From contig JBGAIQ010000011.1 in the NCBI GenBank assembly GCA_044225365.1, positions 64,001 through 128,000 of the forward strand: DNA of 64,000 nt, written 5' to 3'. This document shows, in pieces, positions 5,396 to 56,891 of this stretch. The DNA comes from Planctomycetota bacterium (lineage in GTDB: Bacteria; Planctomycetota; B15-G4; JADJEK01). The notes under the pieces were generated by a model. It was given only the letters and a program-made list of their open reading frames with translations. It was not told the DNA's origin and searched no databases. The stretch's first letter is position 1, and each line of letters opens with the position of its first letter. The position numbers and the translations under genes were made by a program.

Positions 5396-6877
5396 TCACG
5401 CCAGCAGCTCGTTCACCACGTTCCCGGCGACATCCGTGAGCCGGAAATCGCGACCCTGGAAGCGGTACGTCAGCTTCTCGTGATCGATGCCGAGGCAATG
5501 CAGCACGGTCGCGTTGAAGTCGTGCACGTGAACCGGCTTCTTCACGATGTTGTAGCCGAAGTCGTCGGTCTCGCCGTGGACCACGCCGCCCTTCACGCCG
5601 CCGCCCGCCATCCACACTGTGAAGCAACGCGGATGATGATCGCGCCCGTAGTTCTCGTGCGTGAGTCGACCCTGACAGTAGATCGTGCGCCCGAATTCGG
5701 TCGCCCAGACGACGAGCGTGTCGTCGAGCATTCCGCGCTGCTTCAGATCGGTGATGAGCGCGGCGCACGGTTGATCGACATCGCGGCACTGCAGCGGCAG
5801 ATCGCCCGTGAGGTTTTCATGCTGATCCCAGTTGCGATGGAACAACTGGACGAACCGCACGTCGCGCTCGGCGAGGCGACGCGCGAGCAACGCATTGCGC
5901 GCGAACGATCCTGGACGTTCGACATCGGGTCCATAGAGATCGAGGACGCTCTTCGGCTCATTGCGAAGATCGACGAGGTCCGGTACGGAGCGCTGCATTC
6001 GGAACGCCATCTCGTACTGCGTGATCCGCGTGAGCGTCTCCGGGTCGCCGACTTGTTCATGCTCCTTCGCGTTCAGCTTCGCCAAACCGTCGAGCATTCG
6101 GCGTCGTGTCTTCGTGTCGATTCCCGCGGGATCCGTGAGATAGAGCACGGGATCGCCCTGCGATCGCAGCGCGACGCCCTGATGCACCGTCGGCAGGAAT
6201 CCCGACCCCCACAACTTCGAGAACAACGCCTGCGCATCGCGCTTCGCGCTGCCCATCGAGGTGAGAACGACGAACGCCGGAAGATCGCGATTCTCACTGC
6301 CGAGTCCATACGACATCCACGCACCGAGACTCGGTCGCCCGGGGATCTCGCTGCCCGTCGTCATGAACGTGATCGCCGGATCGTGATTGATCGCGTTCGT
6401 GTTCAGAGACTTCACGATGCACAGATCGTCGGCGACGCGCGACAGATGCGGCAGGAGCTCCGAGATCTCCGCACCCGATTCGCCGTATCGCTGGAACGAA
6501 TATCGCGTGGGAGCGATCGCGAAGCGCGATTGTCCCGACGTCATCGTCGTGATGCGTTGCCCGTTCCGAATCGACTCCGGAAGGTCCTTGTCGAACCAGT
6601 CCGCCATCTTCGGCTTGTAGTCGAAGAGATCGAGCTGCGATGGGCCGTCGGCCATGAACAGATAGATGACTCGTTTCGCTCGCGGGCGGATGTGAGTGCG
6701 GCCGTCGAGCGCGCCGAGTCGCGGGCCGTTGGCGGTCGCCCCTGCGGCGGGAGCGAGGAGAGAAGCCAGCGCCGCCGAGCCGATGCCCGTCGCCGTGCGG
6801 CCGAAGAACATCCGGCGGGTGAGGAGCTCTTGGCGCTCACGGAGCGGATCGTGCGGTGCGTCGTTCATCGCTCTCAT
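5396..6877 (-). CDS. DUF1501 domain protein (planctomycete type, Tat-like signal)
   Basis: TRRMFF twin-Arg-like motif. [37 protein letters not shown] and [11 protein letters not shown] motifs. ATGA overlap with the upstream gene at 6874-6877. Confidence 0.88.
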
Positions 6878-9720
6878 CCTCTCGTGATCGCCGCGTCGAG
6901 ATTGAGCAACAGGCTCGCCACGATCGTCCACGCCGCTTCCTCGCTCGCGTCCAGCGCGGGATCGCCCGCTTTCTCTCCGACCGTCAGGAGCTGTTTCGCC
7001 GCCTCCCCGTTCTTCCGATACTCGATGCGCTGCGCGTCGAGTACTTCACGAAGGATCGCGACGTCCGCCGCGTCGGCGGAGAGCGACGTCGTGAGCTGGT
7101 AGCCGAACGCGAGTCGCTCGTCGTCCGTCGCTCCTCCTTCCTTCAGAAGGCGCTGCGCGAGGAAACGCGAAGCTTCGACGTACTGCACGTCGTTCATGAG
7201 CGCGAGCGCCTGGAGCGGCGTATTGGTGTTCGAACGCTGGACGCAGCAACGTTCACGCGACGGCGCGTCGAATGCCGTGAGCGACGGCGGCGGCGCCGTC
7301 CGCTTCCAGAACGTGTAGAGACCGCGGCGATAGAGCGCCTCGCCCTTGTCCTGCGTGTAGTGCGACGTGTTGCTCGTCGGATACGCGACGGCCTGCCAGA
7401 TACCATCGGGCTGATAGGGCTTGACGCTCGGGCCACCGACGCGTTCGACGAGCAATCCCGAAACGAAGAGCGCGGTGTCGCGGATCTCCTCGGCATCGAG
7501 TCGGAAGCGCGCGCCGCGCCCGAACAGGCGATTCTTGGGATCGCGCTCGATCTGGTCCTTCGTTGCGTGCGAGGACTCGCGATAGGTCGACGAGTTCACG
7601 ATGAGCCGGATCATGTGGCGTAGATCCCATCCGCTCTCGACGAATTCGACCGCGAGCCAATCGAGCAACTCGGGATGCGAGGGCGGCGCGCTACGCAGGC
7701 CGAAATCCTCGACCGTTTCGACGAGGCCGATGCCGAAGAACCGCTGCCACAGTCGATTCATCGTGACGCGCGCGAGTAGCGGATTCCTGGGATCGACGAC
7801 CCACGCGGCGAGAGTGAGACGATTCGGTTGCGCGCCGGCTTTGTCCGCGAGCGCCGGCAGCGGCGGGAGAATCGCAGGCGTGCGCGGTTCGACGGGATCG
7901 CCCTTCCGGTCGTACTGCCCTCGGTTCAGGAAGTACGCCTGGCGGCGCATCGACGACTCGGCGGCCACGAGAGTGTCGGGAATCGCGGCCTCGACCGCCG
8001 CGCGCTCGGCTTCGAGCTTCTTCCGTCGCGCGTCGAGTTCGGCGTACCGTGCGTCGGTCGCGGCACGGAAGTATCGGCGAATCGCGGTGCGATCCTGCGC
8101 ATCGCGTGCGTCCTCGGATTTCGCGAAGAGCGCTGCGACTTCGTCGGGAACGGCCTCGCTCGACGTCGAGATCCGGAACAGTCCCATCGCGTGGCGGGCG
8201 AACACCGAGTGGAACACGAGGGTCGCTCGTACCCGCGTGCCGCCTTCGTAACCGAACGGGGCTTTGGCCGCGAAGCGCGCGACGCGAGCCTCGGGCTTGT
8301 ACTCGATCGCCCAACCCGTGTTCGTCGGATCGCCGTCGATCGCATTCTCGACCGGAAACCCCGGCTGTGAGAAATCCGCCTTCGCCGAAGCAAGGGCGAT
8401 GGGCGCGAAGGGGGTCGAGCCATCGAGCGGCGCCGCCTCCACCTTCAGATCGGTCAGTACGAAGTTCGAGTTGTCGGCCCTGCCGATTCCGTTCTGAGCG
8501 CAGCTCTCGTGCTTCAGGCACTCGACGCGCAGCGCATGGATCGCCCTCTCCTTCGTCTCGAACTCGACGATGTATGAGTCCTTGTCCGGGTTCTTGCCCG
8601 AAGGAAGGATCGAGCCGTCCGGCTGCGCGGTGAGCGTCGAGCCTCCTTCCGTCTCGAGGCGGGTCGGTGTCGCGACCTTCCACTGCGCCTTCAGGCGGTC
8701 TCCCCAATCCTTCTCGAAAGCCGTTTGCGCGGCCTCGAGCAGAGGATCGTCCTTGTCCTCCTCCGCCCGCACGCTCGTCAGCTTCCCATCGAGATCGGCG
8801 AGAGCGGCCTCTTGTTCCCGCGTTGGAGCCTTGATGTAGGGCGGCGGGTTGTGGATGTTCTCGTCCGTGCCCTTCTCGGCGAGGTTGTTGAAGAACGCGT
8901 AGAGCTGATAGAACTCTTTCTGCGTGAACGGGTCGTACTTGTGATCGTGGCACTGCGCGCAACCGAGCGTGCTCCCGAGCCAGATCGTCGAGAACGTCTC
9001 CGTGCGATCGATCGCGTACTTGACGAGGTATTCCTCCTCGATCAAGCCGCCCTCGGCGGTCGTCGGATTGCAGCGCAAGAATCCCGTCGCGATGCGTTGA
9101 TCGAGCGTGGGCTTCGGCAACAGATCGCCCGCGAGCTGCTCGGTCGTGAAGCGGTCGAAGGGCATGTTCTGCGCGAACGCGTCGATGACCCAATCGCGAT
9201 AACGCCAGATGCTGCGCTCGTTGTCGAGGTGATACCCGTGCGTGTCGCCGAAGCGCGCGACGTCGAGCCAGTCCTTCGCCATGCGCTCGGCGTGACGTGG
9301 CGACTTCAGGAGCCGCTCCACGACGTTCGAGTAGGCGTCCTTCGAGTCGTCGTTCCGATACGCGTCGATCTCCGCGGGCGTCGGCGGCAGTCCCGTGAGG
9401 TCGAACGTGACCTTTCGCAGCTCTTCTTCCTTCGTCGCCGGAGGATTCGGCGCGATGCCTTCCGACTCCAGCTTGCGCAACACGAACGCATCGATGGGCG
9501 TCGCCACGAACGACGGAACCGCGACCGCCGGCACTTCCGGCCGGCGCGGGGCGACGTAGGCCCAGTGCGTGCGCTTTGCGAGGTCTTTCGCTTCTTGGTC
9601 GCGTTCGAGTCGAGCGCTGTCGATCGCCGACTCCGCTCGCGGCGGGTCCGCGGCGAACCCGCGCGTCGCGACGGTCAGCAGCGACAGCGTTGCGACGGCG
9701 CGCAGGGCGAAGCTTCGCAT
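6874..9720 (-). CDS. DUF1549/DUF1553 (PSCyt2/PSD1) planctomycete cytochrome-like secreted protein
   Basis: Signal peptide. [68 protein letters not shown] and NTPLQAL motifs. Confidence 0.9.
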
Positions 9721-21846: not shown

Positions 21847-23094
21847 CTAGATGAAGCCGAGATCCTGAGGCACGTAGCCCCCGAAGAGCTGGGTCGCGGT
21901 GGCTTGCGATTCGCCGAGCCACTTCATCACGAGGGTGCCGAGGACATCGCGGTAGTCGAGGTTGAGAGAGATCTCACCGGTGGGATCGAGCTGGGCGGGG
22001 TCGAGGGAGGGGTGCGGGTTCAGGAAGCCACCGTGAACGGTGTCGCCGAGGACGAATACGGGGTTGACGGTGCCGTGGTCGGTACCGCCCGAAGCGTTCT
22101 CGCGGAGCGTACGGCCGAACTCGGAGGTGACGACGATCAAGGTGTTGCTCCCGAGTCCAAGAGCCCCGAGATCCGTGCGGAATGCGGCGAGGCCCTGCGA
22201 GATCAGCGCGAGCATGTTGGAATGGAAGCCGTCCTTGTTCTGGTCGGCGTGCGTGTCGAAGTTGCCGTACTGTACGCGGAAGAACCGCAGGCCCAGGTTT
22301 GCGCTCAGGAGGCGCAATACGATCTGCATCGCGAGGGAGAAGCTGCCGGCCGGATACGCGCCCTGGAACTGGACCTGCGGGACGGTCTTCAGCGTGTCGA
22401 CGAGCTCGAGGAGCTGGTCGCTCGTAGCACCGATGGACTGCAGCATCCCGCTCGTCGCGAGCGACGCGGCGACCATCGATTCGTAGGCCTTTCGACGATT
22501 CGGCCCGTCTTCGGGATGGGCGTAGTCGAACGGGAAATTGAAGGCCTCGATCACGCCGATCGCCGGGATCTCGCCCGCCGCTCCCGCGGTCAGCAGTGTC
22601 GTCGTATCGCCGATCTCCGTCGCGAAGGGGAATGACGGCTTCGGATACAGCGAGAGATAACGGCCGAGCCAGCCCGTGGTGCCAGGAGCGGAGGGCAACC
22701 CTGAGCGCCAGATACGCGCCGAGTAGTCGTGTGACAGATTCGGATTGGGATATCCGACGCCCTGCATCACGGCGAGGCGTCCCGTGAGGTAGAGGTCGCG
22801 CATCTCCTTCCACGACGGATGGAATCCGTAGGGCTTGCCCGCGATCTTGAGCACCTGGCTCTCGGGAACGCCGAGATTCGGGCGGTAGAGGTCGTAGTAC
22901 GCGCCTCCGTTCACCCCGAATGGGACGATCGTATTGAGGCCGTCGTTCCCGCCCTGCAGCTCGACGAACACGATGTTGCGAGCCGGCGCGCCCGGCGCGC
23001 CGAAAGCGGTACTCACTCCGAGGGAGCGCAAGGCCAAGAGCGCGGGGATCGCACTCGCGCCCTTCTTCATCAGATCGCGGCGAGAGAGGCTCAT
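21847..23094 (-). CDS. DUF1501 family protein (DUF1800-associated, Tat signal)
   Basis: MSLSRRDLMK Tat motif. LQGGNDGLNT, GYPNPNLSH, FDTHADQ and SEFGRTLRENASGGTDHG motifs. ATGA overlap with the DUF1800 gene. Confidence 0.9.
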   Translation of the reverse strand: MSLSRRDLMKKGASAIPALLALRSLGVSTAFGAPGAPARNIVFVELQGGNDGLNTIVPFGVNGGAYYDLYRPNLGVPESQVLKIAGKPYGFHPSWKEMRDLYLTGRLAVMQGVGYPNPNLSHDYSARIWRSGLPSAPGTTGWLGRYLSLYPKPSFPFATEIGDTTTLLTAGAAGEIPAIGVIEAFNFPFDYAHPEDGPNRRKAYESMVAASLATSGMLQSIGATSDQLLELVDTLKTVPQVQFQGAYPAGSFSLAMQIVLRLLSANLGLRFFRVQYGNFDTHADQNKDGFHSNMLALISQGLAAFRTDLGALGLGSNTLIVVTSEFGRTLRENASGGTDHGTVNPVFVLGDTVHGGFLNPHPSLDPAQLDPTGEISLNLDYRDVLGTLVMKWLGESQATATQLFGGYVPQDLGFI

Positions 23095-24458
23095 GCGAAC
23101 TGGTACTCCGGACTCGCGAGGATGAGCGCGACGAGGCCCCGGACTTTCACTTCCGCTGTCGCGTCGTCGAGTACGAACGGGACGATGTCTCCATGGGGAG
23201 ACTGCTGCATGTACTTCACGAGCGCGTTGAACGTCGCGTTCGATACGTTTCCCACGTTGAGTTGCGCGAGGGCTCGCAGCACCACGGTAGGTGCGTCGAG
23301 CAACGGCCAGCTCTCGACCGGGCCGAGCAGTTTCTCGAGCTTCCAGGTCACGATCGGCTTGATCTCGACTCGTGCCGTCGCGAGCTGATCTGCGATGCGA
23401 GCGCGCTGCATCATCGTGTTCGTCGTGATCCAGGCCTTGCCTTCGTCCCAACCGAAGACCGAGGGCGGATTGAACAGGACTTGGCCGAGTAGATTGAGGA
23501 GCCACGCGATCTTTGGGCTGTCGATCTTCTTCTTCGAGAACTTTCCGCGCAGCATTCGCAGCGATCCGACGAGGAACTCGATCGGGCTCTTGATGCGCGC
23601 GTACTTCGTCGAGGGCGCGTAGAACTCGTCCATGCGGAAGATGGTCTCGACCATCGTGCGGATGGAACCTCCGCTCTGCTGATACGCCACGACGATCGGC
23701 TGCAGGAGTGGATCGTCGAGCGCAACCGGTCGCGCGAAGAACGAGAACAACTTCCAGGCAATTCGCCGCGCGGTGACCAGATCGGCGACGACGATTTGCA
23801 CGATCTGCTCCCCATCGAGATTGCCCGTGATCCCGCGGAAGGTCTTCGATCCGTAATCGTGCAGCTCGGGCTTGAAGGCGAAGACTCCGTGCTCGAGCGA
23901 CCAACCGGTGAACGCGCGCGCGCCTTCCTTCACGTCGTTCTCGGTGTAATTCGCCTTACCGTTCGCGGCGTAGACGCCACAGGTGAAGATCTCCATCAGC
24001 TCGCGCGCGAAGTTGAGGTTTGGCGCCCCCTTCACGTTGCTGACGGTATCGAGCCACACGAGCATCGCGGGATCGCGCGCCATCGCGAGCGTGAGGTCGT
24101 AGAACTTCCCCGCGCAGTGCTTTCGCAGCGTGACGTTCTGCTTGAACATCGCGAGCGGGTCGACGACTTTGGAAATGCCGGTCGCGAAATGGTTGTGCCA
24201 GAAGAGCGTCAGCTTCTCGATGAGCGGCGACTTGGTCTTCAGCATCCGCGCCAGCCACCAGGTCTGCAGGCGGTCGGGCGGCGCAGGCTTCGCCAGCGTC
24301 CCCATGTAGATCTGCTTCGCCTTGTCCGGCTTGAAGAGTTGCTCGATCGTCGCATCGAGCCCTGCCTTCACGGCGGCGTCGACTTCTGCGAGCGTGGGGC
24401 CGAAACCCGCGCGACGGAGCAGATGTGCGGCATTCTCGGGATCGAAGGAAACGGTCAT
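23091..24458 (-). CDS. DUF1800 family protein
   Basis: HLLRRAGFG, EKLTLFWHNHF, DPAMLVWLD, NFARELMEIFT, ARAFTGW, PPSVFGW and SPEYQ motifs. Confidence 0.92.
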   Translation of the reverse strand: MTVSFDPENAAHLLRRAGFGPTLAEVDAAVKAGLDATIEQLFKPDKAKQIYMGTLAKPAPPDRLQTWWLARMLKTKSPLIEKLTLFWHNHFATGISKVVDPLAMFKQNVTLRKHCAGKFYDLTLAMARDPAMLVWLDTVSNVKGAPNLNFARELMEIFTCGVYAANGKANYTENDVKEGARAFTGWSLEHGVFAFKPELHDYGSKTFRGITGNLDGEQIVQIVVADLVTARRIAWKLFSFFARPVALDDPLLQPIVVAYQQSGGSIRTMVETIFRMDEFYAPSTKYARIKSPIEFLVGSLRMLRGKFSKKKIDSPKIAWLLNLLGQVLFNPPSVFGWDEGKAWITTNTMMQRARIADQLATARVEIKPIVTWKLEKLLGPVESWPLLDAPTVVLRALAQLNVGNVSNATFNALVKYMQQSPHGDIVPFVLDDATAEVKVRGLVALILASPEYQFA

Positions 24459-47323: not shown

Positions 47324-50300
47324 TCACGGTGTGACCACGACGCGAAATCCGATCGTATCCGGGTATTCGCTGCGCAGAACCGAAGTGCGAGTCGCGCAGC
47401 TCGTCGCGTCCGGATTCGACTTCCAGTGCCCGCCACGGACGACGCGTGATTCGGGATCGACTCCGTCGCCTCCCGTCACGAGCGGATCGCGGAACGCGTC
47501 GGCGCCGGCGAACGGATTCGCCGAATAGGCGTCGGCGCACCACTCGGCGGCGTTGCCCACGGTGTCGAACAGCAGGTTCGCGTTGAAGCCGTACTTCTTG
47601 AAGGTCCCGACCGGTGCGAGGTACGTGATTCCGTCATCGAAGTCGAAGGCGCCATACATGAGCTCGCGACGTACTGCCTTCGTCGCCGGCCCGAGCACGT
47701 TCTCGCGATCCTTCAGATCCGAACGAGCATCGCCCCACCAGTACGGACCCGGCGAGCCCGCGCGCGCGGCGAATTCCCACTCGGCCTCGGTCGGCAGGCG
47801 AATGCCGTCGCCGGCCCACTTGCAGAATCGCTCGGCCTGCTCAGCGCGCACGCGCACGACGGGATACGAATCGCCGTACTCGATTCCCTTGCCGAACGGA
47901 CTCGCGAGGGGGAACTCGTCGCCCTCGGCATGGAACGGATCGTCTTTCGCCTCGACGAAGCGACGGAACTGTCCGACGGTCGTCTCGTAGCGCGCGATGT
48001 AGAACGACTTCGAGATCGTGACGCGAGGAGTCGTCGCGTTGGGAGCCGCGAGGCTCGGGACGAACGAGCCGGGCTCGATCAGTGCGAATTCGATTCCGGA
48101 CTTCTGGTGCCGCACGACCTTCGCGAGGCCCGAAACACCGCGACGCGGAACGATCACCTCGAAACCCTCGGGGCAACCCGGCGCGAAGCTCGCTCGGCGT
48201 TCGAGCGCGTGCCGGCGCGGATTGTTCGGAGCGATCTCGGCGAGCACGGTGAGCGCGGTCGTCACCACTTTCTGCGAGTAACCCGGCGAAGGGCCGTCGA
48301 TCCGGGCGACGAGTTCGTCCTCGAGACTGCGCTCCGCGGTTTCGATCGCCGCATGCGCCGCTCCGGATGCTCGAATCGCCGCGCTCGGCCGTCGTGCCGC
48401 GAGCGCCGCGTCGGCCATCGAAAGATCCTCGCGTGCCGAGTCGATCCTGCCCTTCACGACGTCGGGCAGCGGGAACGCGGCGGCAACGAGGCCGATTCGT
48501 TGTTCGAGGGCCTTGAACGCGTCGTGGGCTTCGTTCGCCGCGCGAGCTGCGTCGGCCTCGCTCTTGCTCTGGTTGCCACGAAGGGCGTCGAGCTGCTCCG
48601 CTTGGAGACCGAGCGATTCGAGCAGCGCGAATCGCCGATCGGAGAGTTCACCGGCGTGCTCGGCGTCGGATTGCGAGGCGAGCACGATCGCTTCCCGCAG
48701 GTCGTTCGCGAGCGCGACGGCTTCGTTCGCGAGTGAGTCGAAATCGTTGCGTCCGTCGCCCTTCATCGAAGGCAGATCCGAGTGCAGCTTCTCCAGTCGG
48801 CTGCGGTGCGCTTTCATGCGTTGCTCGAGCGCCTGGAACGTTTCGGACTCGACGAGCCCCTTCGCCGCGGTGAGCTTCTGTTCGCTCGAAGCCAGGGTCC
48901 CCTCCGCGCTGCGGCGTGCCGCGAACAACGGCCCGCTCTCGGAGAGCGTCGTTTCGAGCGCCGACAGTTTCGCCTTCACCGTTTCGATCGAACGATCGAC
49001 TTCGAGAAGCTCGTCCTTCGTCGTCGTACGATCGATCGTGCGGCGCGTCGTTTCGATCTCCGAATCGACCGCGTCGAGCGCCGCCTTCACCTGCGCCGTG
49101 CGCTCCGCCTCGGCCGAATGCGAGGCTTCCTTGAACGACCCGAGGGCGGTGCGCAGGCTCTCGCTCTGGCGGGCGAGTTCTTCGATCGGGACCCGTCGCG
49201 CGTTCTGCTCGCGATTGAACTCTTCGACGAGTTTGCTGGCGTCGGCGAGATTGATCGTCGGCGCGCTCGTGCCGTCGCTGTTTCGAACCGGAGCGACCGG
49301 GCTCTTCAGTCCGAGCCAGTTCTCCACGCGATCGCGCTGCCACCATGCCGCGCCGCCGGCCGCGAGGACGAGGAAGAGGATCGTCGCGAGGACCTTCGCG
49401 AGGCCGCTCGAGCCCTGCGCCATCGAGGTCGGCTCGATCTGCGCGAGCATCTCCTCGACGGATTGGTAGCGCTTGCTCGGCTCTTCCTCGAGACACCGCA
49501 GGATGACTGGGCGGATCTCCTGCGGAATCTTCTCGGGATCGATCGCGACGGGTTTCATGCCCGTGAGCAGGTGGTATAGCGTCTTGCCGAGCGAGAAGAT
49601 GTCGGAGCGCTGATCCGCAGCATGCGCATCGACCCACTGCTCGGGCGCCATGTAGAGCAGCGTGCCGGCGGCTCCGCGCGTCGACGAGACCGAATGCTCG
49701 TCCGTCGCGCGCACGAGTCCGAAGTCCGCGAGCTTCGGCTCGCCGCCTTCCGTGAGGAGGATGTTGTGCGGCTTGATGTCGCGATGCACCACACCCTTGC
49801 TGTGCGCGTAGCCGAGCGCGGCGCCGATCTTGCGCGCGACGTTCAACGTCTCGTAGACGCTGAGCTTGCCCGTCGCCTTCACCTTGTCCATGAGCGAGCC
49901 GCCCGCGGCCCACTCGAGCACGAGGTAATCGCCCTCGTCGTCGCGCGCCGGCTGCAAGAGCTGCAGGATGTGCGGGTGCGAGAGCTTCGCGATCGACATC
50001 GCTTCGCGATGGAAGCGAACGATCACGTTGGGATCGAGTTGCTGCTGGGCGTGGATGCGCTTGATCGCGACGTAACGCCCGGTCGCGCGTTCGACCGCTT
50101 TGTGCACGCTGCCCATGCCGCCCATCATCGGATCGCCGACGATCTCGTAGAGTTCGTCCGCGGGGCGGAACGGGAAGCTCGCGCTGCGCGATTCGCCGAG
50201 GCTCCCCGAGCCAGAGCCGGTTCGCCCCGCCTTGCTGCTTCGCCCGGGATCGAGGCCGTCGCCGTTCGATCGCGGAGTCGACGGCGGAAGCGTTCCGGAC

Positions 50301-51286
50301 GCGCTCCCCTCGGGCGTCGAATCGATCGCGCCCGGCGCCGACAGCTCGTTCGAGAGATCGAGTTCGTCGCCGCTTCTCGTGGACGTGCCGCCCCGGACCA
50401 CGGGCCTTGGCGGCCGCGACACACCCGGAGAGAGCGTGGGCAGCGTTGCGCTCCTGTCGCGAGACGGATCGCCGAAGACCTGCGATTCCGAGATCGTGAT
50501 GTCGCCGCCGGGAACGGCGCGTCGCAGTGCGGCGATCACCTCGTCGAACGACTTCATTCGCTGCGAACGCTTCAACGCGATGCAGTCGCGGATCACGTCG
50601 CGGAACGACTGCGGCACGAGACCGAGTGCGACCGAGAACGGCGCCTCCCCCGTGACCATGTGATACATCACTCCGCCGAACGCGAAGATGTCGGGGCTCG
50701 GATCGAACTTGCCCTTCTCGACGAGCTCGCCGCCGAGATCGTAGGGATCGGGACGAATCGACGGACCGGGGAGTGAACCGAGTTCATCCATTCCGAAACC
50801 GGCGAGTCGGGCACTCCCATCCTCGCCAAAGACGATGTTGCTCGGTCGCACGTGACCATGCAGCACGTTCTTGCTATGCGCGAAGCTGAGCGCCTGCGCG
50901 ACCGAGAGCGCGACCCGGAACGCATCCCGCTCGCCGAGCGGACCTTGCTCGAGGCGATGCGAGAGCGTGCCGTATTCGGGCCACTCGATCACGCAGTACG
51001 TCGACTGCGCATCGCGGGCGATGTCGAAGACGCGAACGATCGATGGATGAACGAGGGCTCGGGCCCGCGCGGCGTCGTTGCGAAAGCGCGCGATCGCCGT
51101 GGTGTCGTGGCTGACCTCGCCGCGCAATCGCTGGATCGCGACCTTCTTGCCGGAGCGACGATCTCGCGCCGGGAAGATCTCCGTCTGTTGACTGGCAATC
51201 TCCTCCCCGAGGAGTTCGAACGACTCCTCGAGAGGAGCAAACGGCAGATCATCGGCTTGCGGCATCGATCGCTTCTTCTCACTCAC
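47324..51286 (-). CDS. Pseudokinase + Ser/Thr kinase + TM + coiled coil + FGE-sulfatase (SUMF1-like) domain protein
   Basis: Domain 1 has VAIQ / HGHVRPSN / AGFG (degenerate). Domain 2 has GGMG, VAIK, HRDIKPHN, DFG and YMAPEQ. TM segment. C-terminal RYETTVGQF, RLPTEAEWEFAARAG, GNAAEWC and IGFRVV. Confidence 0.9.
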   Translation of the reverse strand: MSEKKRSMPQADDLPFAPLEESFELLGEEIASQQTEIFPARDRRSGKKVAIQRLRGEVSHDTTAIARFRNDAARARALVHPSIVRVFDIARDAQSTYCVIEWPEYGTLSHRLEQGPLGERDAFRVALSVAQALSFAHSKNVLHGHVRPSNIVFGEDGSARLAGFGMDELGSLPGPSIRPDPYDLGGELVEKGKFDPSPDIFAFGGVMYHMVTGEAPFSVALGLVPQSFRDVIRDCIALKRSQRMKSFDEVIAALRRAVPGGDITISESQVFGDPSRDRSATLPTLSPGVSRPPRPVVRGGTSTRSGDELDLSNELSAPGAIDSTPEGSASGTLPPSTPRSNGDGLDPGRSSKAGRTGSGSGSLGESRSASFPFRPADELYEIVGDPMMGGMGSVHKAVERATGRYVAIKRIHAQQQLDPNVIVRFHREAMSIAKLSHPHILQLLQPARDDEGDYLVLEWAAGGSLMDKVKATGKLSVYETLNVARKIGAALGYAHSKGVVHRDIKPHNILLTEGGEPKLADFGLVRATDEHSVSSTRGAAGTLLYMAPEQWVDAHAADQRSDIFSLGKTLYHLLTGMKPVAIDPEKIPQEIRPVILRCLEEEPSKRYQSVEEMLAQIEPTSMAQGSSGLAKVLATILFLVLAAGGAAWWQRDRVENWLGLKSPVAPVRNSDGTSAPTINLADASKLVEEFNREQNARRVPIEELARQSESLRTALGSFKEASHSAEAERTAQVKAALDAVDSEIETTRRTIDRTTTKDELLEVDRSIETVKAKLSALETTLSESGPLFAARRSAEGTLASSEQKLTAAKGLVESETFQALEQRMKAHRSRLEKLHSDLPSMKGDGRNDFDSLANEAVALANDLREAIVLASQSDAEHAGELSDRRFALLESLGLQAEQLDALRGNQSKSEADAARAANEAHDAFKALEQRIGLVAAAFPLPDVVKGRIDSAREDLSMADAALAARRPSAAIRASGAAHAAIETAERSLEDELVARIDGPSPGYSQKVVTTALTVLAEIAPNNPRRHALERRASFAPGCPEGFEVIVPRRGVSGLAKVVRHQKSGIEFALIEPGSFVPSLAAPNATTPRVTISKSFYIARYETTVGQFRRFVEAKDDPFHAEGDEFPLASPFGKGIEYGDSYPVVRVRAEQAERFCKWAGDGIRLPTEAEWEFAARAGSPGPYWWGDARSDLKDRENVLGPATKAVRRELMYGAFDFDDGITYLAPVGTFKKYGFNANLLFDTVGNAAEWCADAYSANPFAGADAFRDPLVTGGDGVDPESRVVRGGHWKSNPDATSCATRTSVLRSEYPDTIGFRVVVTP

Positions 51287-51478: not shown

Positions 51479-53134
51479 TTGCGCCGCATCCTCGGAATCG
51501 CTCTGGTCCTTGCGATACTGTTCGTGTTGCGCACGCCGCGCATCACGGCAGATGGCCTCCAGTACTGCCTCGACTCGCGCAGCGGAGCCGATTTCTTCCA
51601 TCCTCATCACCTGCTCACGACACCCGCCATCCACTTCGTTCACGCGGTCCTGAACGCGGTCGGCATCGCAGCGGACGAGATCCTCGCCGGGCGAATCCAC
51701 AGCCTGTTCTTTACAGCGGTCCTCGGCCTTTCCTTCCTCGCCCTCCTGCGCTCCGTGTTCGGCAAGGACGCCGTATCGCCCTTCGAGCCCCTGGCCCTCG
51801 TTTTCACGTACGGCGTCGCCACGTTCGCATCGCAACCGGAGTCGTACACGGCTTCGCTCGCCTGCCTCGTCCTCGCGTTCTACGTCGTGAGCCAAGAAGG
51901 TCGCCTGCGCCACGGGCTCGTCGCGGCGCTCCTTCTCGCGCTCGCCGTGCTCTATCACCAACTCGCGGTGCTCTCCGGTTTGCCGCTCCTCGGCTACGGA
52001 CTGTTTCGGCGCGAGAGGCGGGGCGTCGTGCTGGTATGCCTCACCGTGTCGGCCTCGCTCGTGCTGCTGGCCTACGTCGCAGCCCATCGCGCGAGTTCCT
52101 CGCCGCAATCGCTCGTCGAGTTCGCATTGCACTACTCCAAGAACGGTCTTCCCGGGTGGGGCGAGGAAGCGAACTTCGGGAGCCGCGGGATCGCGAGCTT
52201 CGGGAACTCGATCCTGCACAGCGTCACGGGAGCGCTCCCCAACGGCGAATCGCGTGGACGGGGCATCGTCGTCGTGCTCGTGCTCGCTTTGCTGATCGGT
52301 GCGAACGCGATCGAGTTCCTGCGGCGCCGCGAGCGCAATGCGGTCGCCGACCCTGCGATGCGCGGCGCGAGCATCGTCGCCGTGATCGTCTACTCGATCT
52401 TCCTCGTGTGGTGGATCCCGGCGCTCAGCAAGTACGAGCTGTATCTCCTGCCGCATCTCTATCTGCTCGCGCGCTTCCTCGCGATCGACCACGCGTCGCC
52501 GGAGCCTTTGCGACGTCGGGTTCCGTTCGCAGTGCTCGCATTCGCGGGAACGATCGTCCTCGCACGACTCCTCCCCGAACATCTCGAACCGCATGTTCCG
52601 AGGGAGCGCGCCGCACGACTTGCGCGCGTGGGCGGCCCCGGGACGATTCGGATCTGCGATTTCGAGACCGCGAATTTCCTCCGCTACGACCACGGCGACG
52701 CTCTGGTGATGCCCGCGCAGGTCATCCTCTACTGCGCCTACAACGGGACGTTCGAGCGCGTGAAGGGCCGCATCGCCGATCCGCTCAGTAACGCTTCGAC
52801 GATCGTGATCCCGCTCTCGGAACTGGCTCCGACCTATGAAGCCTATGGTCGCAACGCCGACTCGAATCCCGCGGCATGGCGGCAATTCGCGCTCTGGCTC
52901 TTCGATCTGCGCGCCGGTGGGTCACCGCAGGGTGCGGGCACCCGGCGGGCGTTCGAGGTCGAATCCCTCGAGGGCGGCGAGTTCGTCGTCGTGATGAGTC
53001 AGGACCGCGTCGCCACGAAAGGGCTCGCGGAAGTCTTCGAGGCGCTCGACGCCAAGATCGCCGCGCGATCGGCCGATCCATCGCTCGTGCGCTTTCGGGT
53101 GTGGGACGAGCGCGTCCGCATGGCGCGGCACTGA
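51479..53134 (+). CDS. Polytopic membrane protein, possibly GT-C glycosyltransferase-like
   Basis: About 10 hydrophobic segments. FHPHHLL loop, QPESY and LYHQ motifs. Soluble C-terminal domain. Function inferred only. Confidence 0.6.
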   Translation: MRRILGIALVLAILFVLRTPRITADGLQYCLDSRSGADFFHPHHLLTTPAIHFVHAVLNAVGIAADEILAGRIHSLFFTAVLGLSFLALLRSVFGKDAVSPFEPLALVFTYGVATFASQPESYTASLACLVLAFYVVSQEGRLRHGLVAALLLALAVLYHQLAVLSGLPLLGYGLFRRERRGVVLVCLTVSASLVLLAYVAAHRASSSPQSLVEFALHYSKNGLPGWGEEANFGSRGIASFGNSILHSVTGALPNGESRGRGIVVVLVLALLIGANAIEFLRRRERNAVADPAMRGASIVAVIVYSIFLVWWIPALSKYELYLLPHLYLLARFLAIDHASPEPLRRRVPFAVLAFAGTIVLARLLPEHLEPHVPRERAARLARVGGPGTIRICDFETANFLRYDHGDALVMPAQVILYCAYNGTFERVKGRIADPLSNASTIVIPLSELAPTYEAYGRNADSNPAAWRQFALWLFDLRAGGSPQGAGTRRAFEVESLEGGEFVVVMSQDRVATKGLAEVFEALDAKIAARSADPSLVRFRVWDERVRMARH

Positions 53135-53139
53135 GCGCT

Positions 53140-53988
53140 TCAGATGTCGCTCGTCCGTACGAAGTCGAACGTCGAGTCGAGTTCGCCGAACGTGACGACG
53201 CTTGCACTCGCGCTGGGCTCGATTCCTCGCGCTCTCAATTCGAGGGCGAGCGGGCTCCCGCGTGGCACGCAGAACATGTGCACCGCATCCGACGAGAACG
53301 CCGGGGTCGAGTGCGGTCCGTTCGCGCCATCGCCGTACCGAAGGTGCAGCAGGTGCATGGGCCGACCCGTGCTCCGTAGCACGATGTCCTTCTTGCCGCG
53401 GAGATCGATGAGCGTGAGCGAGCCGAGATGCGATTCGAGGAGAGATGATTGGGCCTCGATCTGCGGGCCGGATAGCGAGAACAGATCGAGGGTCGCTGGG
53501 GTCTTGGGCGCAGGTGAGACGAAGCGCGAGAGATACGGGACGAGCCGATTCGCGCCCGTGGCGTCGTTCATCGAGATCGCGTAAGCCGCGTTCGCCGAAG
53601 CAGCGGCATCGCTGCGAAAAGCGTTCACGAGGGGCAATGCGATGCGGTGGCGCAGCGCGTTGCGATTCGCCTTGAGATCGCACAGATACCACGCGAGGCG
53701 AGTTCCGCCGTCGCGAAGGGGAACGCGCCGCAGCACCGCCGCGAGCACGCCGAGGATCGTGTCGCCGTCGAGCGCGACGTAGGAACGCAAGGGCTCGAGC
53801 GATCCGTGCTCTATCGTCACTGCAAGGCGGCGGAAGAACGCGAAGTAGTCGGCGCCGCCTCGCCCGTGATCGATCTCGAATCGATCGTCGCCGAGCGGAT
53901 ACGTGATGCCCCGTTCGAGCGCGGCGATGCGACGGCCGAAACCGTCGAGTTCCGCGGATTCGAGGCGCCGTACGACGAGACCCGTCAT
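53140..53988 (-). CDS. GNAT-like acyltransferase-fold protein
   Basis: ATGA-coupled start MTGLVVRRL. ILGVLAAVLR and AWYLCDLKANRNALRHRIA resemble GNAT beta4 / motif A. Confidence 0.65.
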   Translation of the reverse strand: MTGLVVRRLESAELDGFGRRIAALERGITYPLGDDRFEIDHGRGGADYFAFFRRLAVTIEHGSLEPLRSYVALDGDTILGVLAAVLRRVPLRDGGTRLAWYLCDLKANRNALRHRIALPLVNAFRSDAAASANAAYAISMNDATGANRLVPYLSRFVSPAPKTPATLDLFSLSGPQIEAQSSLLESHLGSLTLIDLRGKKDIVLRSTGRPMHLLHLRYGDGANGPHSTPAFSSDAVHMFCVPRGSPLALELRARGIEPSASASVVTFGELDSTFDFVRTSDI

Positions 53989-54731
53989 GTCGCCCTCGTA
54001 TGGAGCCCCGCTCGACCATGGCCCCGTGACGACGCTCGACGCCCCCGCGACCGATACAAGTCGCGATAGAGACGGTCGAAGACGTACGCACCTTGACGCA
54101 AGCCCTGTTCGACGTAGTAGCGACCTTCGTCCGACGCTTCGTAGGACGGCCGCAGCACCGCGAAGAAGTCGTCGGAGTGACGCCAATCGAGTTTCTCGTG
54201 GAGCGAGTAGTGAATCATCTCCTCCTGCTTCAGGAACCCGCGCGCGACGATCGCCTGACCGATCCACGTCGAGATGTCGGCGAACATCCGCTCGATGATT
54301 CCCATCGTGCCCGCGCTCACGGCGAACTCGTCCATCAGCGATGCGCCGACGAGCGTGGTGTTGAACGCGCGGACCTCCGGCCACAACGCGCGCGCGTCGA
54401 TATCGATGGGCGAGATCCCCGCCATTCGCCGCAGCAACTCCTGGAACGTCTCGCCGTGCATCAGCGATGCATCGCCCTCGCCGTGCTCTTCCCACACGTT
54501 GCGGAGAACTTCGAGGCGCTGGCGCGGAAAGGGGATCTTGGCCGCGACGGCCGCCATCGGACGACTGAAGAAGATGACGGCGAAATAGAACTGGATCTGG
54601 GTCTCGACGAAATCGTCCTTCGTGAACGAGCCGTCGCGCAGTGCTGCGAAATAGGGATTGTCGCGATAACCCGACTCTTCGAGGACGCGCGCGACGAGGG
54701 CGTCGAACGATAGGGACTCCGTAGTCGTCAT
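53985..54731 (-). CDS. Heme-oxygenase-like diiron oxidase (CADD/PqqC/TenA-like iron-containing redox enzyme)
   Basis: Ligand pattern NVWEEHG...MHGETF...IIE...YSLHEKLDWRH (E, H, E, HxxxDxxH). All-helical, 248 aa. ATGA overlap with the upstream gene. Confidence 0.82.
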   Translation of the reverse strand: MTTTESLSFDALVARVLEESGYRDNPYFAALRDGSFTKDDFVETQIQFYFAVIFFSRPMAAVAAKIPFPRQRLEVLRNVWEEHGEGDASLMHGETFQELLRRMAGISPIDIDARALWPEVRAFNTTLVGASLMDEFAVSAGTMGIIERMFADISTWIGQAIVARGFLKQEEMIHYSLHEKLDWRHSDDFFAVLRPSYEASDEGRYYVEQGLRQGAYVFDRLYRDLYRSRGRRASSRGHGRAGLHTRAT

Positions 54732-55729
54732 GAGCGATCTCCCATTCCGGCGCGGCGGACGCCGACGTGCAGACTCGAGTAGAACAGGCTGCGATCGGCG
54801 GCGAGTAACGGCCGCGTGAAGTCGGCGTCGAACTCGAATGCTGCGCGGAAGCGTGCTTCGTGGTCGGCCATGTTGTTCAACTGGCGGTAGACGATCACGG
54901 TGCCGGGCCGAGTCGTCGTGACGAGCCTTGTCGCGAGACGATCGATCTCCGCAGGATCCATCCAGTCGAGCACGTTCGACAAGTCGATGAGGTCGAAGCG
55001 GAAGAAGTCCTCGAGGTCCTCCAGTCGCGCATTCGTCGTCTCGATTCCATGCACGGGCGGAAGGACGCGCAGGTAGTCGGGCCAGCTCGCGGGATCCTCG
55101 CGGTAGGCCCCGAGGAAGACGTGGTGGAGGAAGTAGTTCGTGGCGGCGTCGTCGCGCAGCAGGCCGCGTTCGAAGCGCTCGCGGAAGTACTTCGGATAAC
55201 TGCCCGGCTCGGCGTATCGCGTCGCGGCCGCCGTGAACATCGTCTCGAGCAGTTCGTTCGAGAAGAACAACTCGAACGCGACCTTCCAGTAGGGCGAGGC
55301 GAACCAAGTTCGCAGCGATTCGTGATCGCGGGCACCGCCATCGAAGAACGCCCGGAACTCCGCGTCGCTCGCGACGAACTCGTTCAGGAAGGAGCGCAGT
55401 TGCGCGAAGAGGGATTCGAAGTTGCCCCGTTGCGTCAGGCCTTTGGGCATTGGATGACCGATCCCGAACATCTGTTGGAGGTCCGCGGGGTCGGCATCGT
55501 TCGCGGAACGCGCGAGCACCTCGATCTTCCGCCTCACGAGTTCGAGTTGCGCCGGATTGGGGTCGACGAGGACGAGGTCGATGCGGGGATGCGTCGCGCG
55601 CAGCGAGAACGCCGTGCAGCCGCCCGAGGCCACGAGCAAGACGTGTCTCGCCCCGTACTTAGCGACGATCGCCTGTTCGATCCGCGGGTCCTCACGAACG
55701 ACGGCGAACTGGATCGGCGGGTTCCTCAT
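54728..55729 (-). CDS. DUF3419 / BtaA-like SAM-dependent transferase
   Basis: [27 protein letters not shown] and LSNVLDWM match BtaA/DUF3419 motifs (EDP, ASGGCN, DLNPAH, DWM). Confidence 0.8.
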
Positions 55730-55907
55730 CGGCGGCCTCTTGGAAGATCGAGCGGGTAGGACGGCGCGGCCGCGCCCATTCGGTTCGTTCGCTCACGCCT
55801 TCTGTAGTTGCAACCCACGGACCGCGCGGCTTCAATCGTCGGTGCGGCGCATTTGGTTGCGGCGCACGAGTCGAACCGTCATCCAACCTCACACCCAAAG
55901 CCCTCTC

Positions 55908-56891
55908 ATGTCGAAGCCCATCCGTGTCGCGATCACTGGCGCCGCAGGTCAGATCGGTTACTCCCTCCTCTACCCCATCGCGCAGGGCGCCATGCTCGGC
56001 GCGGATCAGCCGGTCATCCTGCAACTCCTCGAATTGCCCGTCGCCGCGAAGGCGCTCGACGGCGTCGCGATGGAGCTCGTCGACTGCGGATATCCGCTGC
56101 TCCACGGGATCGAGACCTCGACCGAGCCGATGAAGGCGTTCAAGGACGCGGACGTAATCATGCTCGTCGGCAGCAAGCCGCGCGGACCGGGTCAATCGCG
56201 CGCCGACCTCATCCGCGACAACGGACCGATCTTCGTCGGCCAAGGCCAGGCGATCGATCAGGTCGCGTCGAAGGACGCGAAGATCATCGTCGTCGGCAAT
56301 CCGTGCAATACGAACTGCCTCATCGCCGCGGCGCAGAGCAAGCGCATCCCGCGCCAGAACTTCACCGCGATGACACGCCTCGACCACAATCGCGCGCTCG
56401 GTCAGATCGCGAGCAAGGCCGGCACGACCTCGAACGCGATCAAGAACGTCATCATCTGGGGCAACCACTCCGACACGATGGTTCCCGACCTCGAGCACGC
56501 GACGGTCAGCGGCAAGCCCGCGCTCTCGACGCTCGACGGCGAATGGCTGAAGGGCGCGTTCGACACCACGGTTCGCACGCGCGGCAAGCAGATCATCGAC
56601 GCGCGCGGGAAGTCGTCGGCGGCCTCCGCGGCGCAATCGGCGATGGACCACATCCACGATTGGGCAAAGGGCACGGGTCACAACGACTACACGTCGATGG
56701 CCGTTCCGAGCGACGGCAGCTACGGGGTGCCCGAAGGTCTCATCTTCTCGTTCCCCTGCCGCGTGAAGTCGCCATGGCAGTACGAGATCGTGAAGGACCT
56801 GAAGGTCAGCGACGACATCAAGTCCCGCATGAAGAAGACGATCGACGAGCTCGTCTCCGAGCGCGAGACGGTGAGGGACCTGCTCGTCTGA
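55908..56891 (+). CDS. mdh: Malate dehydrogenase
   Basis: [35 protein letters not shown] and SSAASAA motifs. Confidence 0.96.

Follow-up and report, generated by a model that had tools for sequence, protein, structure and literature searches.

The enzyme families met in the locus described here are best known from a few systems. BtaA/BTA1 transfers the 3-amino-3-carboxypropyl group of S-adenosylmethionine (SAM) to diacylglycerol with release of MTA, diacylglycerol is the substrate of the DUF3419 members of known function, and to our knowledge aminocarboxypropyl transfer is so far the sole reaction of characterised DUF3419 enzymes. In microcin C maturation by MccD/MccE, aminocarboxypropyl transfer from SAM is followed by decarboxylation, and a GNAT domain is present in the same system. 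Among the heme-oxygenase-like diiron oxidases (HDOs), every newly solved member that we know of has shown new chemistry. Here we describe a compact locus in which a DUF3419 enzyme, an HDO and a tandem GNAT protein are encoded side by side, in a 64,000-nt window of Planctomycetota DNA (coordinates throughout are positions within that whole window):

54728..55729, minus strand: gene A, a soluble DUF3419/BtaA-family SAM-dependent transferase of 333 aa (Pfam PF11899 match, structure model).
53985..54731, minus strand: gene B, a heme-oxygenase-like diiron oxidase (PF14518 match, six metal ligands).
53140..53988, minus strand: gene C, a tandem-GNAT acyltransferase of 282 aa, its start codon sharing ATGA with the stop of B (structure model, PF00583 matches of relatives).
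55730..55910, no strand assigned: intergenic region of ~180 bp between A and a divergent malate dehydrogenase gene, presumed from the sequence to be the cassette promoter region.
51479-53134, convergent with C: membrane ORF with seven hydrophobic windows.

An earlier sequence-only reading had placed three minus-strand genes with two ATGA overlaps here, and this is what we found: the A/B and B/C junctions read ...TCATGACG... and ...ACATGACG..., so that at 54728-54731 and 53985-53988 a TGA stop and the following start share ATGA. The assignments made in that reading (BtaA-like, HO-like diiron and GNAT-like) also stand, through Pfam matches for A and B and through the structure model and relatives for C. 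Antisense ORFs across the triad, picked by a GC3-based heuristic, were rejected since the minus-strand genes carry family matches and have homologues. None of the three proteins has a predicted membrane segment and all three are predicted to be soluble; a complex prediction for B with C scored 0.00, which gives no verdict either way. The membrane ORF ends only 5 bp from the stop of C, but was rejected as a cassette partner since no relative examined has this gene adjoining the triad, in line with the earlier suspicion that it is unrelated. No Rfam family matched in ten triad loci (the window locus and nine related ones), and no PADLOC defence model matched A, B, C or the membrane neighbour.

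Co-occurrence of the three families in other genomes had been set beforehand as a test of the cassette. The triad is adjacent in 47 of 53 genome loci spanning nine bacterial phyla, with contig ends cutting five of the six incomplete loci, and is complete in all five giant-virus loci, these genome and viral counts having been made with HMMs built partly from the same loci; in a metagenome scan made with the closer B alignment A2, it is complete in 60 of 80 loci. Such adjacency, repeated for these three families across dozens of unrelated genomes, goes far beyond chance. Bacterial gene orders are ABC (32 loci), ACB (10) and BAC (5). The ACB and virus groups form clans in the A, B and C trees alike, the ABC and BAC groups do not do so in every tree, and phyla are mixed within clades of the gene trees. 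ATGA coupling recurs among relatives, and neighbouring genes are also found fused, as A-B (P0125, P0148, P0152, P0186, P0232, P0263 and P0222), as B-C (P0124 and P0127) and as C-B (P0126 and P0256). The triad is thus a conserved and horizontally mobile module. It is not an obligatory one: B apparently occurs without A and C in L165 and L183 and probably also in L141 and L180, A-B occurs without C in L159 and probably in L127, and L053 is without B. On Streptomyces plasmids B adjoins an EF-hand gene, and the PLSDB gene tables, which are incomplete, annotate neither A nor C in its vicinity. In the giant viruses the genes around the triad include those for a poly(A) polymerase, TFIIS and ankyrin proteins.

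Gene A scores 70.6 bits on the DUF3419 profile (PF11899; cut-off 28.2), with matching segments at profile positions 12-91 and 128-382, and is the sole DUF3419 gene of its source genome. Its structure model (pLDDT 94.5) has a class I SAM-binding Rossmann fold that matches SAM methyltransferases with VIA Z of 12.7-11 over ~160 residues, and a helical insertion of ~160 residues lies within the protein. Eleven columns are invariant across 39 A-family sequences, including E13, D14, G37, Q61, N198, S251, N252 and R282, and an N-terminal R-E-D-P motif is kept family-wide. The A sequence has no meaningful match among solved structures and none in NCBIfam, and its model found no Foldseek match in the PDB at E<=0.001. 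It bears no significant likeness to the aminobutyrate transferases NAS and CntL (E ~4e-3, TM 0.23); MccD (5fcd) is among its structural matches (Z 11.4).

In being a soluble DUF3419 protein with a class I SAM-binding fold A resembles BtaA, whose reaction would also be the first step that we propose, transfer of the SAM aminocarboxypropyl group to a hydroxyl. Unlike BtaA, it reaches only 70.6 bits on the family profile, is ~50 residues shorter than that profile and lacks a BtaB-type N-methyltransferase partner; its constant partners are instead a diiron oxidase and a GNAT, neither of which is used in the synthesis of the betaine lipid DGTS. Among the 37 other window ORFs (picked by a GC3 heuristic, so that a short or missed ORF is possible) no methyltransferase family was matched at E<=1e-5, and the loci scanned in other genomes seldom have a methyltransferase gene with the triad. 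This agrees with the earlier statement that the window holds no BtaB-type methyltransferase and, together with the constant partners, upholds its view that the route is one other than that to DGTS.

An improbable alternative is that A is itself a methyltransferase, in which case the module would methylate, oxidise and acylate a substrate not derived from SAM. A weakly matches Methyltransf_12 and Methyltransf_25, every strong structural match of A is a methyltransferase, and a second, more canonical DUF3419 paralog (without an NCBIfam match) lies downstream of the triad in five Legionella loci and would permit a division of labour. Against this, A stands above the DUF3419 cut-off, neither its R-E-D-P motif nor its helical insertion has a counterpart in the matched methyltransferases, and the one reaction characterised for the family, as far as we know, is aminocarboxypropyl transfer.

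Gene B matches PF14518 (Haem_oxygenas_2) at 61.6 bits (cut-off 28.9). The complete E/H/E/HxxxDxxH diiron ligand set that had been read in the middle protein is present in full as E82, H92, E147, H178, D182 and H185 (H178-x3-D182-x2-H185), and all six residues are invariant in 29 of 29 sequences, four of them viral. By profile, the nearest solved relatives are the CADD-type 4-aminobenzoate synthases 9pj4 (2.6e-9) and 1rcw (1e-7), followed by HrmI (3e-4) and BesC (4e-3). B shares with BesC, UndA, AetD and CADD the seven-helix HDO signature and the six ligands, and differs from them in its low identity (at most ~25-30%), in its coupling and sometimes fusion to a SAM enzyme or a GNAT, and in invariant residues of its own (N78, T95, F96, F123, N124, S154, H174 and Y175).

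These relationships bear on whether the locus simply encodes a described pathway, either DGTS synthesis by BtaA/BtaB or CADD-type p-aminobenzoate synthesis, which we regard as the least probable of the alternatives and highly improbable in itself. In its favour, A does belong to the BtaA family, and CADD-type enzymes head the solved relatives of B. However, B and C are dispensable for DGTS synthesis, no methyltransferase was matched among the window ORFs, and the source genome has no second DUF3419 gene. B itself reaches only 25.7 bits on the NCBIfam CADD family TIGR04305, far below the cut-off of 200, and carries F28 and I157 at what we take to be the sites of the sacrificial Tyr and Lys of CADD, so that it does not appear to keep these residues.

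According to the RohS paper (PMC13133933), the N-oxygenases SznF and RohS (subgroup-1 HDOs) have a seventh ligand, a Glu that lies on auxiliary helix 2 and precedes the first ligand Glu by 26 residues, whereas in HDOs without this Glu (UndA, BesC and AetD) the substrate carboxylate is the seventh ligand. Mapped by spacing and not by structural alignment, the equivalent position in B is 56, 26 residues before E82, and positions 53-59 (IFFSRPM) contain no acidic residue. By the same spacing-based comparison, the ABC- and ACB-type B proteins do not conserve a seventh Glu; at position 53, most BAC-type rows (L041, L042, L066 and L069) and two of four viral rows have a Glu, and the Legionella rows an Asp or Glu. 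B appears to be without the seventh Glu of its N-oxygenating relatives, which suggests that its substrate may supply a carboxylate to complete the metal site. Carboxylate-acting genes found as partners of the triad, AsnB-type amidotransferases (L065 and L071) and an ICMT-like carboxyl methyltransferase (L067), also point to a carboxylate-bearing substrate; the acidic residues at position 53 in the rows named above, and the N-oxygenase HrmI as a sequence relative of B, count against it.

Gene C has no Pfam or NCBIfam match of its own, and PF00583 is matched by 32 of 50 C-family members (E<=0.01). The model of C (pLDDT 91.2) has a GNAT fold, with a full N-terminal domain (~1-173) followed by a partial second GNAT-like domain. 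Its best Foldseek matches in the PDB are the Eis-like GNAT 2i00, N-myristoyltransferases (NMTs) and the tandem GNAT 2wpw of clavulanic acid biosynthesis (E 4e-7 to 6e-6), and VIA gave Z of 14.2 against 4zm6, 13.0 against the NMT 2p6e (225 residues) and 12.9 against 2wpw (220 residues). C shares with these proteins the arrangement of a complete GNAT and a second, partial domain, and differs from tandem GNATs including NMT in being ~100 residues shorter and in having a family-specific N-terminal motif, YPLGxDxFxIDHGxDYFAFF. By VIA its likeness to NMT is as close as that to acetyltransferases; at the level of Pfam, the 50 C-family members match only Acetyltransf_1, 7, 8, 9 and 10, and none matches the N- or C-terminal domain of the NMT family. 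In GNATs the loop that binds the pyrophosphate of acyl-CoA follows strand 4 and reads Q/R-x-x-G-x-G/A; in this region the C-family consensus is R-G-R after DLKV, and C itself has NRNALRHR.

The resemblance of C to N-myristoyltransferase and to N-terminal acetyltransferases would also fit a module whose target is not a small molecule but a macromolecule, for instance the N-terminus of a protein or a base in tRNA or rRNA. Aminocarboxypropyl transfer to RNA and proteins occurs in other enzyme families, triad-bearing giant viruses are rich in translation genes, and in viral loci L091 to L094 the triad lies beside the poly(A) polymerase gene. We nevertheless consider a macromolecular target very improbable, since none of the three proteins showed an RNA- or protein-binding domain, A and B have an acidic pI (5.8) and there is no conserved target gene nearby.

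The neighbours of the triad differ almost everywhere and most are unrelated, which argues for a self-sufficient module. About ten loci, a minority of all, have lipid-acting partners. FA_desaturase-family genes abut the triad on the same strand in L052, L069, L084, L088 and L184, as do genes for a PAP2 protein (L087), a GDSL lipase (L074) and lysophospholipase-type hydrolases (L041 and L042), and on a Mycobacterium riyadhense plasmid an MmpL lipid exporter gene lies 107 bp downstream. For the desaturase-like partners the top-scoring families are the arginine hydroxylase GntB and carotenoid enzymes, but no score comes near its cut-off. In the scanned neighbourhoods no gene for export, regulation or precursor supply recurs, and the transporters seen next to the triad are limited to MmpL and an MFS match that is weak and sub-threshold (L043).

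These neighbours can be set against a further alternative, that the product is a soluble amino-acid-derived metabolite, for example an O- or N-substituted homoserine or a vinylglycine-type antimetabolite or signal, which C acetylates for self-protection or transient protection. Judging by the RohS paper (PMC13133933) and by the solved relatives of B, the substrates of all its characterised relatives are free amino acids, fatty acids or a residue of the protein itself. A, B and C are all predicted to be soluble, C matches resistance acetyltransferases, those for tabtoxin and bialaphos among them, with VIA Z of 11.6-12.5, and some partners (a class III aminotransferase in L059, an M20 deacylase-type peptidase in L074, a DegT aminotransferase in L158 and the AsnB-type amidotransferases) suggest soluble amino-acid chemistry, as does the best score of a desaturase-like partner against arginine hydroxylase. 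Toxin and signal clusters, however, usually include the exporter, regulator or precursor genes that do not recur here, one of the two transporters seen belongs to a lipid-exporter family, and lipid-acting partners accompany about ten loci. We judge a soluble metabolite unlikely, although less so than a methylating module.

The reading that we prefer, tentatively and at somewhat less than an even chance, keeps the transfer, oxidation and acylation scheme of the earlier reading, which the evidence supports: A would load a common acceptor, probably a lipid, with an amino-acid group taken from SAM, B would oxidise this group and C would N-acylate it. The module would turn SAM, acyl- or acetyl-CoA, O2 and the common acceptor into one product. 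By analogy with BtaA/BTA1, its only characterised relatives, A would take the 3-amino-3-carboxypropyl group from SAM and place it on an abundant acceptor, at a hydroxyl (or amine), with release of MTA. This acceptor would most probably be a membrane lipid or other lipid, as suggested by the lipid-type partners, by the use of diacylglycerol in the DUF3419 family and by the likeness of C to N-myristoyltransferase, and would thereby gain a homoserine-type amino-acid head group. B may then bind the head group through its free alpha-carboxylate as seventh metal ligand, in the manner of the substrate-triggered HDOs BesC and UndA, and carry out its oxidative decarboxylation, desaturation or hydroxylation, after which C would N-acylate the alpha-amine. 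The predicted product is a lipid or lipo-amino acid of homoserine type, N-acylated and oxidised, and not DGTS. The gene families, folds, diiron ligands, conservation, fusions and mobility are shown by the data; we infer the transferred group, the acceptor, the order of the steps and the reaction of B, and count against this lipid reading the methyltransferase-like fold of A (Z ~12), the small number of lipid partners and the lack of a membrane segment in all three proteins.

The steps so proposed have a parallel in MccD/MccE, where a class I-fold SAM aminocarboxypropyl transferase is likewise combined with a decarboxylating step and a GNAT. MccD, unlike A, lies outside DUF3419; decarboxylation there is the work of a PLP-dependent enzyme, not of an O2-dependent diiron one, and no peptide-nucleotide genes lie near the triad. 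Our literature search, in which most subscription journals were outside coverage, found no description of the triad, and a chlorosphaerolactylate paper and a CroV lipidome preprint had no bearing on it. RefSeq gives the triad genes only generic names. With NCBIfam silent for A and C and CADD sub-threshold for B, no described pathway was found to which the cassette maps, as had been supposed from sequence alone.

If the proposed chemistry is correct, it would place two enzyme families under active study in a new reaction context and would point to an unrecognised lipid or metabolite of Planctomycetota, Myxococcota, predatory and amoeba-associated bacteria, cyanobacteria and giant viruses. With three small soluble genes and ubiquitous co-substrates, the question is directly testable. 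The presence of the triad in giant viruses suggests that the product may matter during protist infection. In its fullest form, which we think rather doubtful, bacteria of at least nine phyla and mimivirus-like giant viruses would share an undescribed route to a new class of lipid with an amino-acid head, a homoserine ether that is N-acylated and oxidatively trimmed and is related to the precursors of betaine lipids. In this route a fused or coupled SAM aminocarboxypropyl transferase would feed a diiron oxidase, and the viruses would be equipped to make a membrane lipid or a host-directed lipo-amino acid themselves.

The three genes, which we call A (a DUF3419/BtaA-family SAM enzyme), B (an HDO, a diiron oxidase of the heme-oxygenase-like kind) and C (a tandem-GNAT acyltransferase), lie in a window of 64% G+C belonging to a 6.5-Mb, 94%-complete genome, and a membrane gene converges on them:

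54728-55729, minus strand: A, 333 aa
53985-54731, minus strand: B, 248 aa
53140-53988, minus strand: C, 282 aa
51479-53134, plus strand: convergent multi-pass membrane ORF, 551 aa, about seven hydrophobic segments, 5 bp from the C stop

At each of the two junctions, A to B and B to C, the stop of the first gene overlaps the start of the next in an ATGA; both of these overlaps, by which the sequence-only reading had the genes joined, were read in the sequence. Three ORFs antisense to the triad (146, 140 and 206 aa, at 53144-54713, plus strand) match no family; they are artefacts that the high G+C produces, with a GC3 bias strong enough to mislead a simple gene picker. The membrane ORF matches PMT_2 and a cell-surface glycopolymer family weakly (E about 0.008) and was never seen beside the triad in relatives (41 related genomes, the window's own among them), in keeping with the earlier suggestion that it may be unrelated. 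Upstream of A, after a gap of ~180 bp, is a divergent malate dehydrogenase gene. Its longest ORF (55557-56891, plus strand) has a TTG start and overlaps gene A; because the Ldh domain starts only at residue 123, the true start is probably an ATG near 55911. Elsewhere in the window, strong Pfam matches mark a DUF1501 gene paired with one for PSCyt2/PSD1 (DUF1549/DUF1553) (5396-9720, minus strand) and a separate DUF1800 gene (23091-24458, minus strand). There are also an IS200-like transposase domain (68-1684) and a 1320-aa protein (47324-51286, minus strand) that combines two Ser/Thr kinase domains with an FGE-sulfatase (SUMF1-like) domain at its C-terminus.

Protein A scores above the Pfam DUF3419 cut-off (70.6 bits), and its predicted structure (pLDDT 94.5) has the class I SAM-binding fold, interrupted between strands 2 and 3 by a helical insertion ~160 residues long. 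By VIA it aligns with many SAM methyltransferases (Z 12.7-11 over ~160 residues). A Foldseek search with the A model gave no significant match, and its weak top rows, nicotianamine synthase and CntL among them (E about 4e-3, TM 0.23), are not counted as evidence. Protein C itself has no Pfam match, although 32 of 50 aligned relatives match PF00583; in its predicted structure (pLDDT 91.2) one full GNAT domain precedes a second, partial one. Foldseek matches of this model are an Eis-like GNAT, N-myristoyltransferases and the clavulanic-acid tandem GNAT, with VIA Z scores of 14.2 to 4zm6, 13.0 to NMT and 12.9 to 2wpw, and the C family has more than 503 members from many phyla in a 5.8-billion-protein set. 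No membrane segments were found in A, B or C.

Protein B exceeds the PF14518 cut-off (61.6 bits). The full diiron ligand set previously claimed for it is borne out by 29 sequences representing every gene-order type and including four viral ones, in which E82, H92, E147, H178, D182 and H185 are all invariant, as are N78, T95, F96, F123, N124, S154, H174 and Y175. Cluster representatives of the family number 518 at E<=1e-3, 291 at 1e-10 and 76 at 1e-30. By profile, the solved structures nearest to it are those of CADD-type 4-aminobenzoate synthases, 9pj4 (2.6e-9) and 1rcw (1e-7), followed by HrmI and then BesC. CADD-type pABA synthesis is nevertheless rejected: B reaches 25.7 bits against a cut-off of 200, and it has F28 and I157 at the positions of the sacrificial Tyr and Lys of CADD. 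A known defence system was also rejected as an identity for the triad. Synthesis of the betaine lipid DGTS, the pathway in which BtaA proteins are at home, had been doubted from the start, and we reject it as well, since no BtaB-type or other methyltransferase occurs among 37 other ORFs picked from the window by GC3 (E<=1e-5), the genome has no second DUF3419 gene, and that pathway requires neither B nor C.

Among the 41 genomes of the close-relative survey, B occurs in 10 (8 strong), A in nine and C in seven. The genes are adjacent in the order A-B-C in five of these genomes, and the 4-nt start/stop overlaps are seen again; one further genome has A-B at a contig end and another has A-C, its B lying apart on a contig of 2.9 kb. 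Across the Planctomycetota the distribution of B is patchy (26 of 301 sampled genomes at E<=1e-20). A scan of species-representative genomes yielded 53 loci, and A, B and C stand side by side in 47 of them, the genes having been called with HMMs of our own alignments, which contain sequences from some of these same loci. The co-occurrence of the three families in other genomes, for which the sequence-only reading had asked as a check, is upheld. Contig ends truncate five of the six incomplete loci (L039, L072, L083, L085, L088), and the sixth, L053, has no B within 5.3 kb. Carriers of all three genes belong to Planctomycetota, Pseudomonadota (Burkholderiales, Lysobacterales, five Legionella species, Alcaligenaceae, Foliamicus), Myxococcota, Bdellovibrionota, Acidobacteriota, Cyanobacteriota, Chloroflexota and Latescibacterota, and a plasmid of Mycobacterium riyadhense adds Actinomycetota; RefSeq names its three products only as 'DUF3419 family protein', 'iron-containing redox enzyme family protein' and 'GNAT family N-acetyltransferase'. 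Of 80 metagenome loci chosen by B, 60 have all three genes and, on our reading of the locus table, about 12 more are cut short; neither A nor C accompanies B in L165 and L183 and probably in L141 and L180, and A-B without C is found in L159 and probably L127. Three Streptomyces plasmids (L098, L100, L101) carry, amid IS elements, a B-family gene 38% identical to B and adjoining an EF-hand gene. No A or C is annotated near it in the PLSDB gene tables, which are incomplete and so no proof of absence; this B may be a leftover or may serve another role.

The triad also extends to giant viruses. A protein-atlas look-up led to Nucleocytoviricota, and a scan of IMG/VR gave five loci (L091-L095), four of them distinct (L091 and L092 being almost the same), on contigs that reach 957 kb and have 22-32% G+C. 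All five hold the three genes, either with A divergent, then C and B, or as C-B-A. Around them are genes of mimivirus type for poly(A) polymerase and TFIIS as well as ankyrin genes; in four loci (L091-L094) the triad adjoins the gene for the catalytic subunit of the poly(A) polymerase. Searched against BFVD, the C model likewise matched J3E7D6 (E 6e-17, TM 0.79) and an uncharacterised Megavirus courdo7 protein, H2EBF7 (E 6e-15).

Bacterial loci have the gene orders ABC (32 loci, L047 among them), ACB (10) and BAC (5), and viral loci are ACB-like (4) or CBA (1). Trees were built without duplicates and close kin (L044, L047, L054, L062, L063, L081, L083, L092) and without loci lacking any of the three genes. 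In the maximum-likelihood tree of B (45 rows) the viruses, the BAC type and, with support 99/100, the ACB type each group as a clade; phyla are mixed within clades, and the viral and some BAC sequences have long branches. Quick trees of A and C again gave the ACB type and the viruses as clans; of the other two types, ABC forms a clan for A and not for C, and BAC for neither. Fusions, counted as 50%-identity clusters, join A to B (P0125, P0148, P0152, P0186, P0232, P0263, P0222), B to C (P0124, P0127) and C to B (P0126, P0256), so that A is the commonest fusion partner of B. A, B and C travel as a unit.

Neighbours of the triad are mostly unrelated from locus to locus, which argues for a self-sufficient module; the isolation of the triad in viral genomes agrees with this, and self-sufficiency also implies substrates available in bacteria and eukaryotic cytoplasm alike. 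Counting as partners only genes abutting the triad on the same strand, we found lipid-directed ones in FA_desaturase-family genes (L052, L069, L084, L088, L184), PAP2 (L087), a GDSL lipase (L074), lysophospholipase-type hydrolases (L041, L042) and, on the M. riyadhense plasmid (L099, NZ_OY970457.1, 6915-12576), an MmpL-family transporter gene (677 bits) that follows A-B-C after 107 bp on the same strand. Flanking that locus are PE/PPE genes, along with genes for three tyrosine recombinases. For the desaturase-like partners the best scores are to GntB, an arginine hydroxylase, and to carotenoid enzymes, far below cut-off, so they are not firm lipid evidence. Other partners are carboxylate-directed (AsnB-type amidotransferases in L065 and L071, an ICMT/PEMT-like methyltransferase in L067) or of amino-acid type (class III aminotransferase, L059; M20 peptidase, L074; DegT aminotransferase, L158). 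Legionella anisa, parisiensis, bozemanae, steelei and steigerwaltii, and these alone, have a four-gene operon (L055, L057, L058, L068, L070) in which C is directly followed by a second DUF3419 paralog of more canonical kind (364-418 aa; profile score 120-132 bits; ~21% identical to A). In a single close relative, a Ni-superoxide dismutase gene (L044:6014-6634) shares 4 nt with the end of C, which would suit co-translation with the triad.

According to the RohS paper (PMC13133933), the six ligands are common to all HDOs; SznF and RohS have one more, a seventh-ligand Glu that auxiliary helix 2 carries 26 residues ahead of the first ligand Glu, and form the peroxo intermediate without substrate, while UndA, BesC and AetD lack this Glu and use the substrate carboxylate instead. 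The stretch of B that matches by spacing (positions 53-59, IFFSRPM) has no acidic residue, and B therefore looks substrate-triggered, by a carboxylate-bearing substrate, as judged from spacing alone. Position 53 is Glu in most BAC-type rows and two of four viral rows, and Asp or Glu in the Legionella rows.

The aminocarboxypropyl group transferred by BtaA bears a carboxylate. This, together with the predominance of A among the fusion partners of B, leads us to an A-then-B-then-C reading in which A would put a homoserine-type amino-acid group on a common acceptor, B would oxidise that group and C would N-acylate its amine. That the acceptor is a lipid is the weaker part of this proposal.

Taken together, the original description of the cassette and its cautious interpretation, a route of transfer, oxidation and acylation other than DGTS synthesis, both stand. 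The triad is a real, mobile three-enzyme module, conserved across phyla, neither DGTS- nor CADD-type, and built from known kinds of enzyme.
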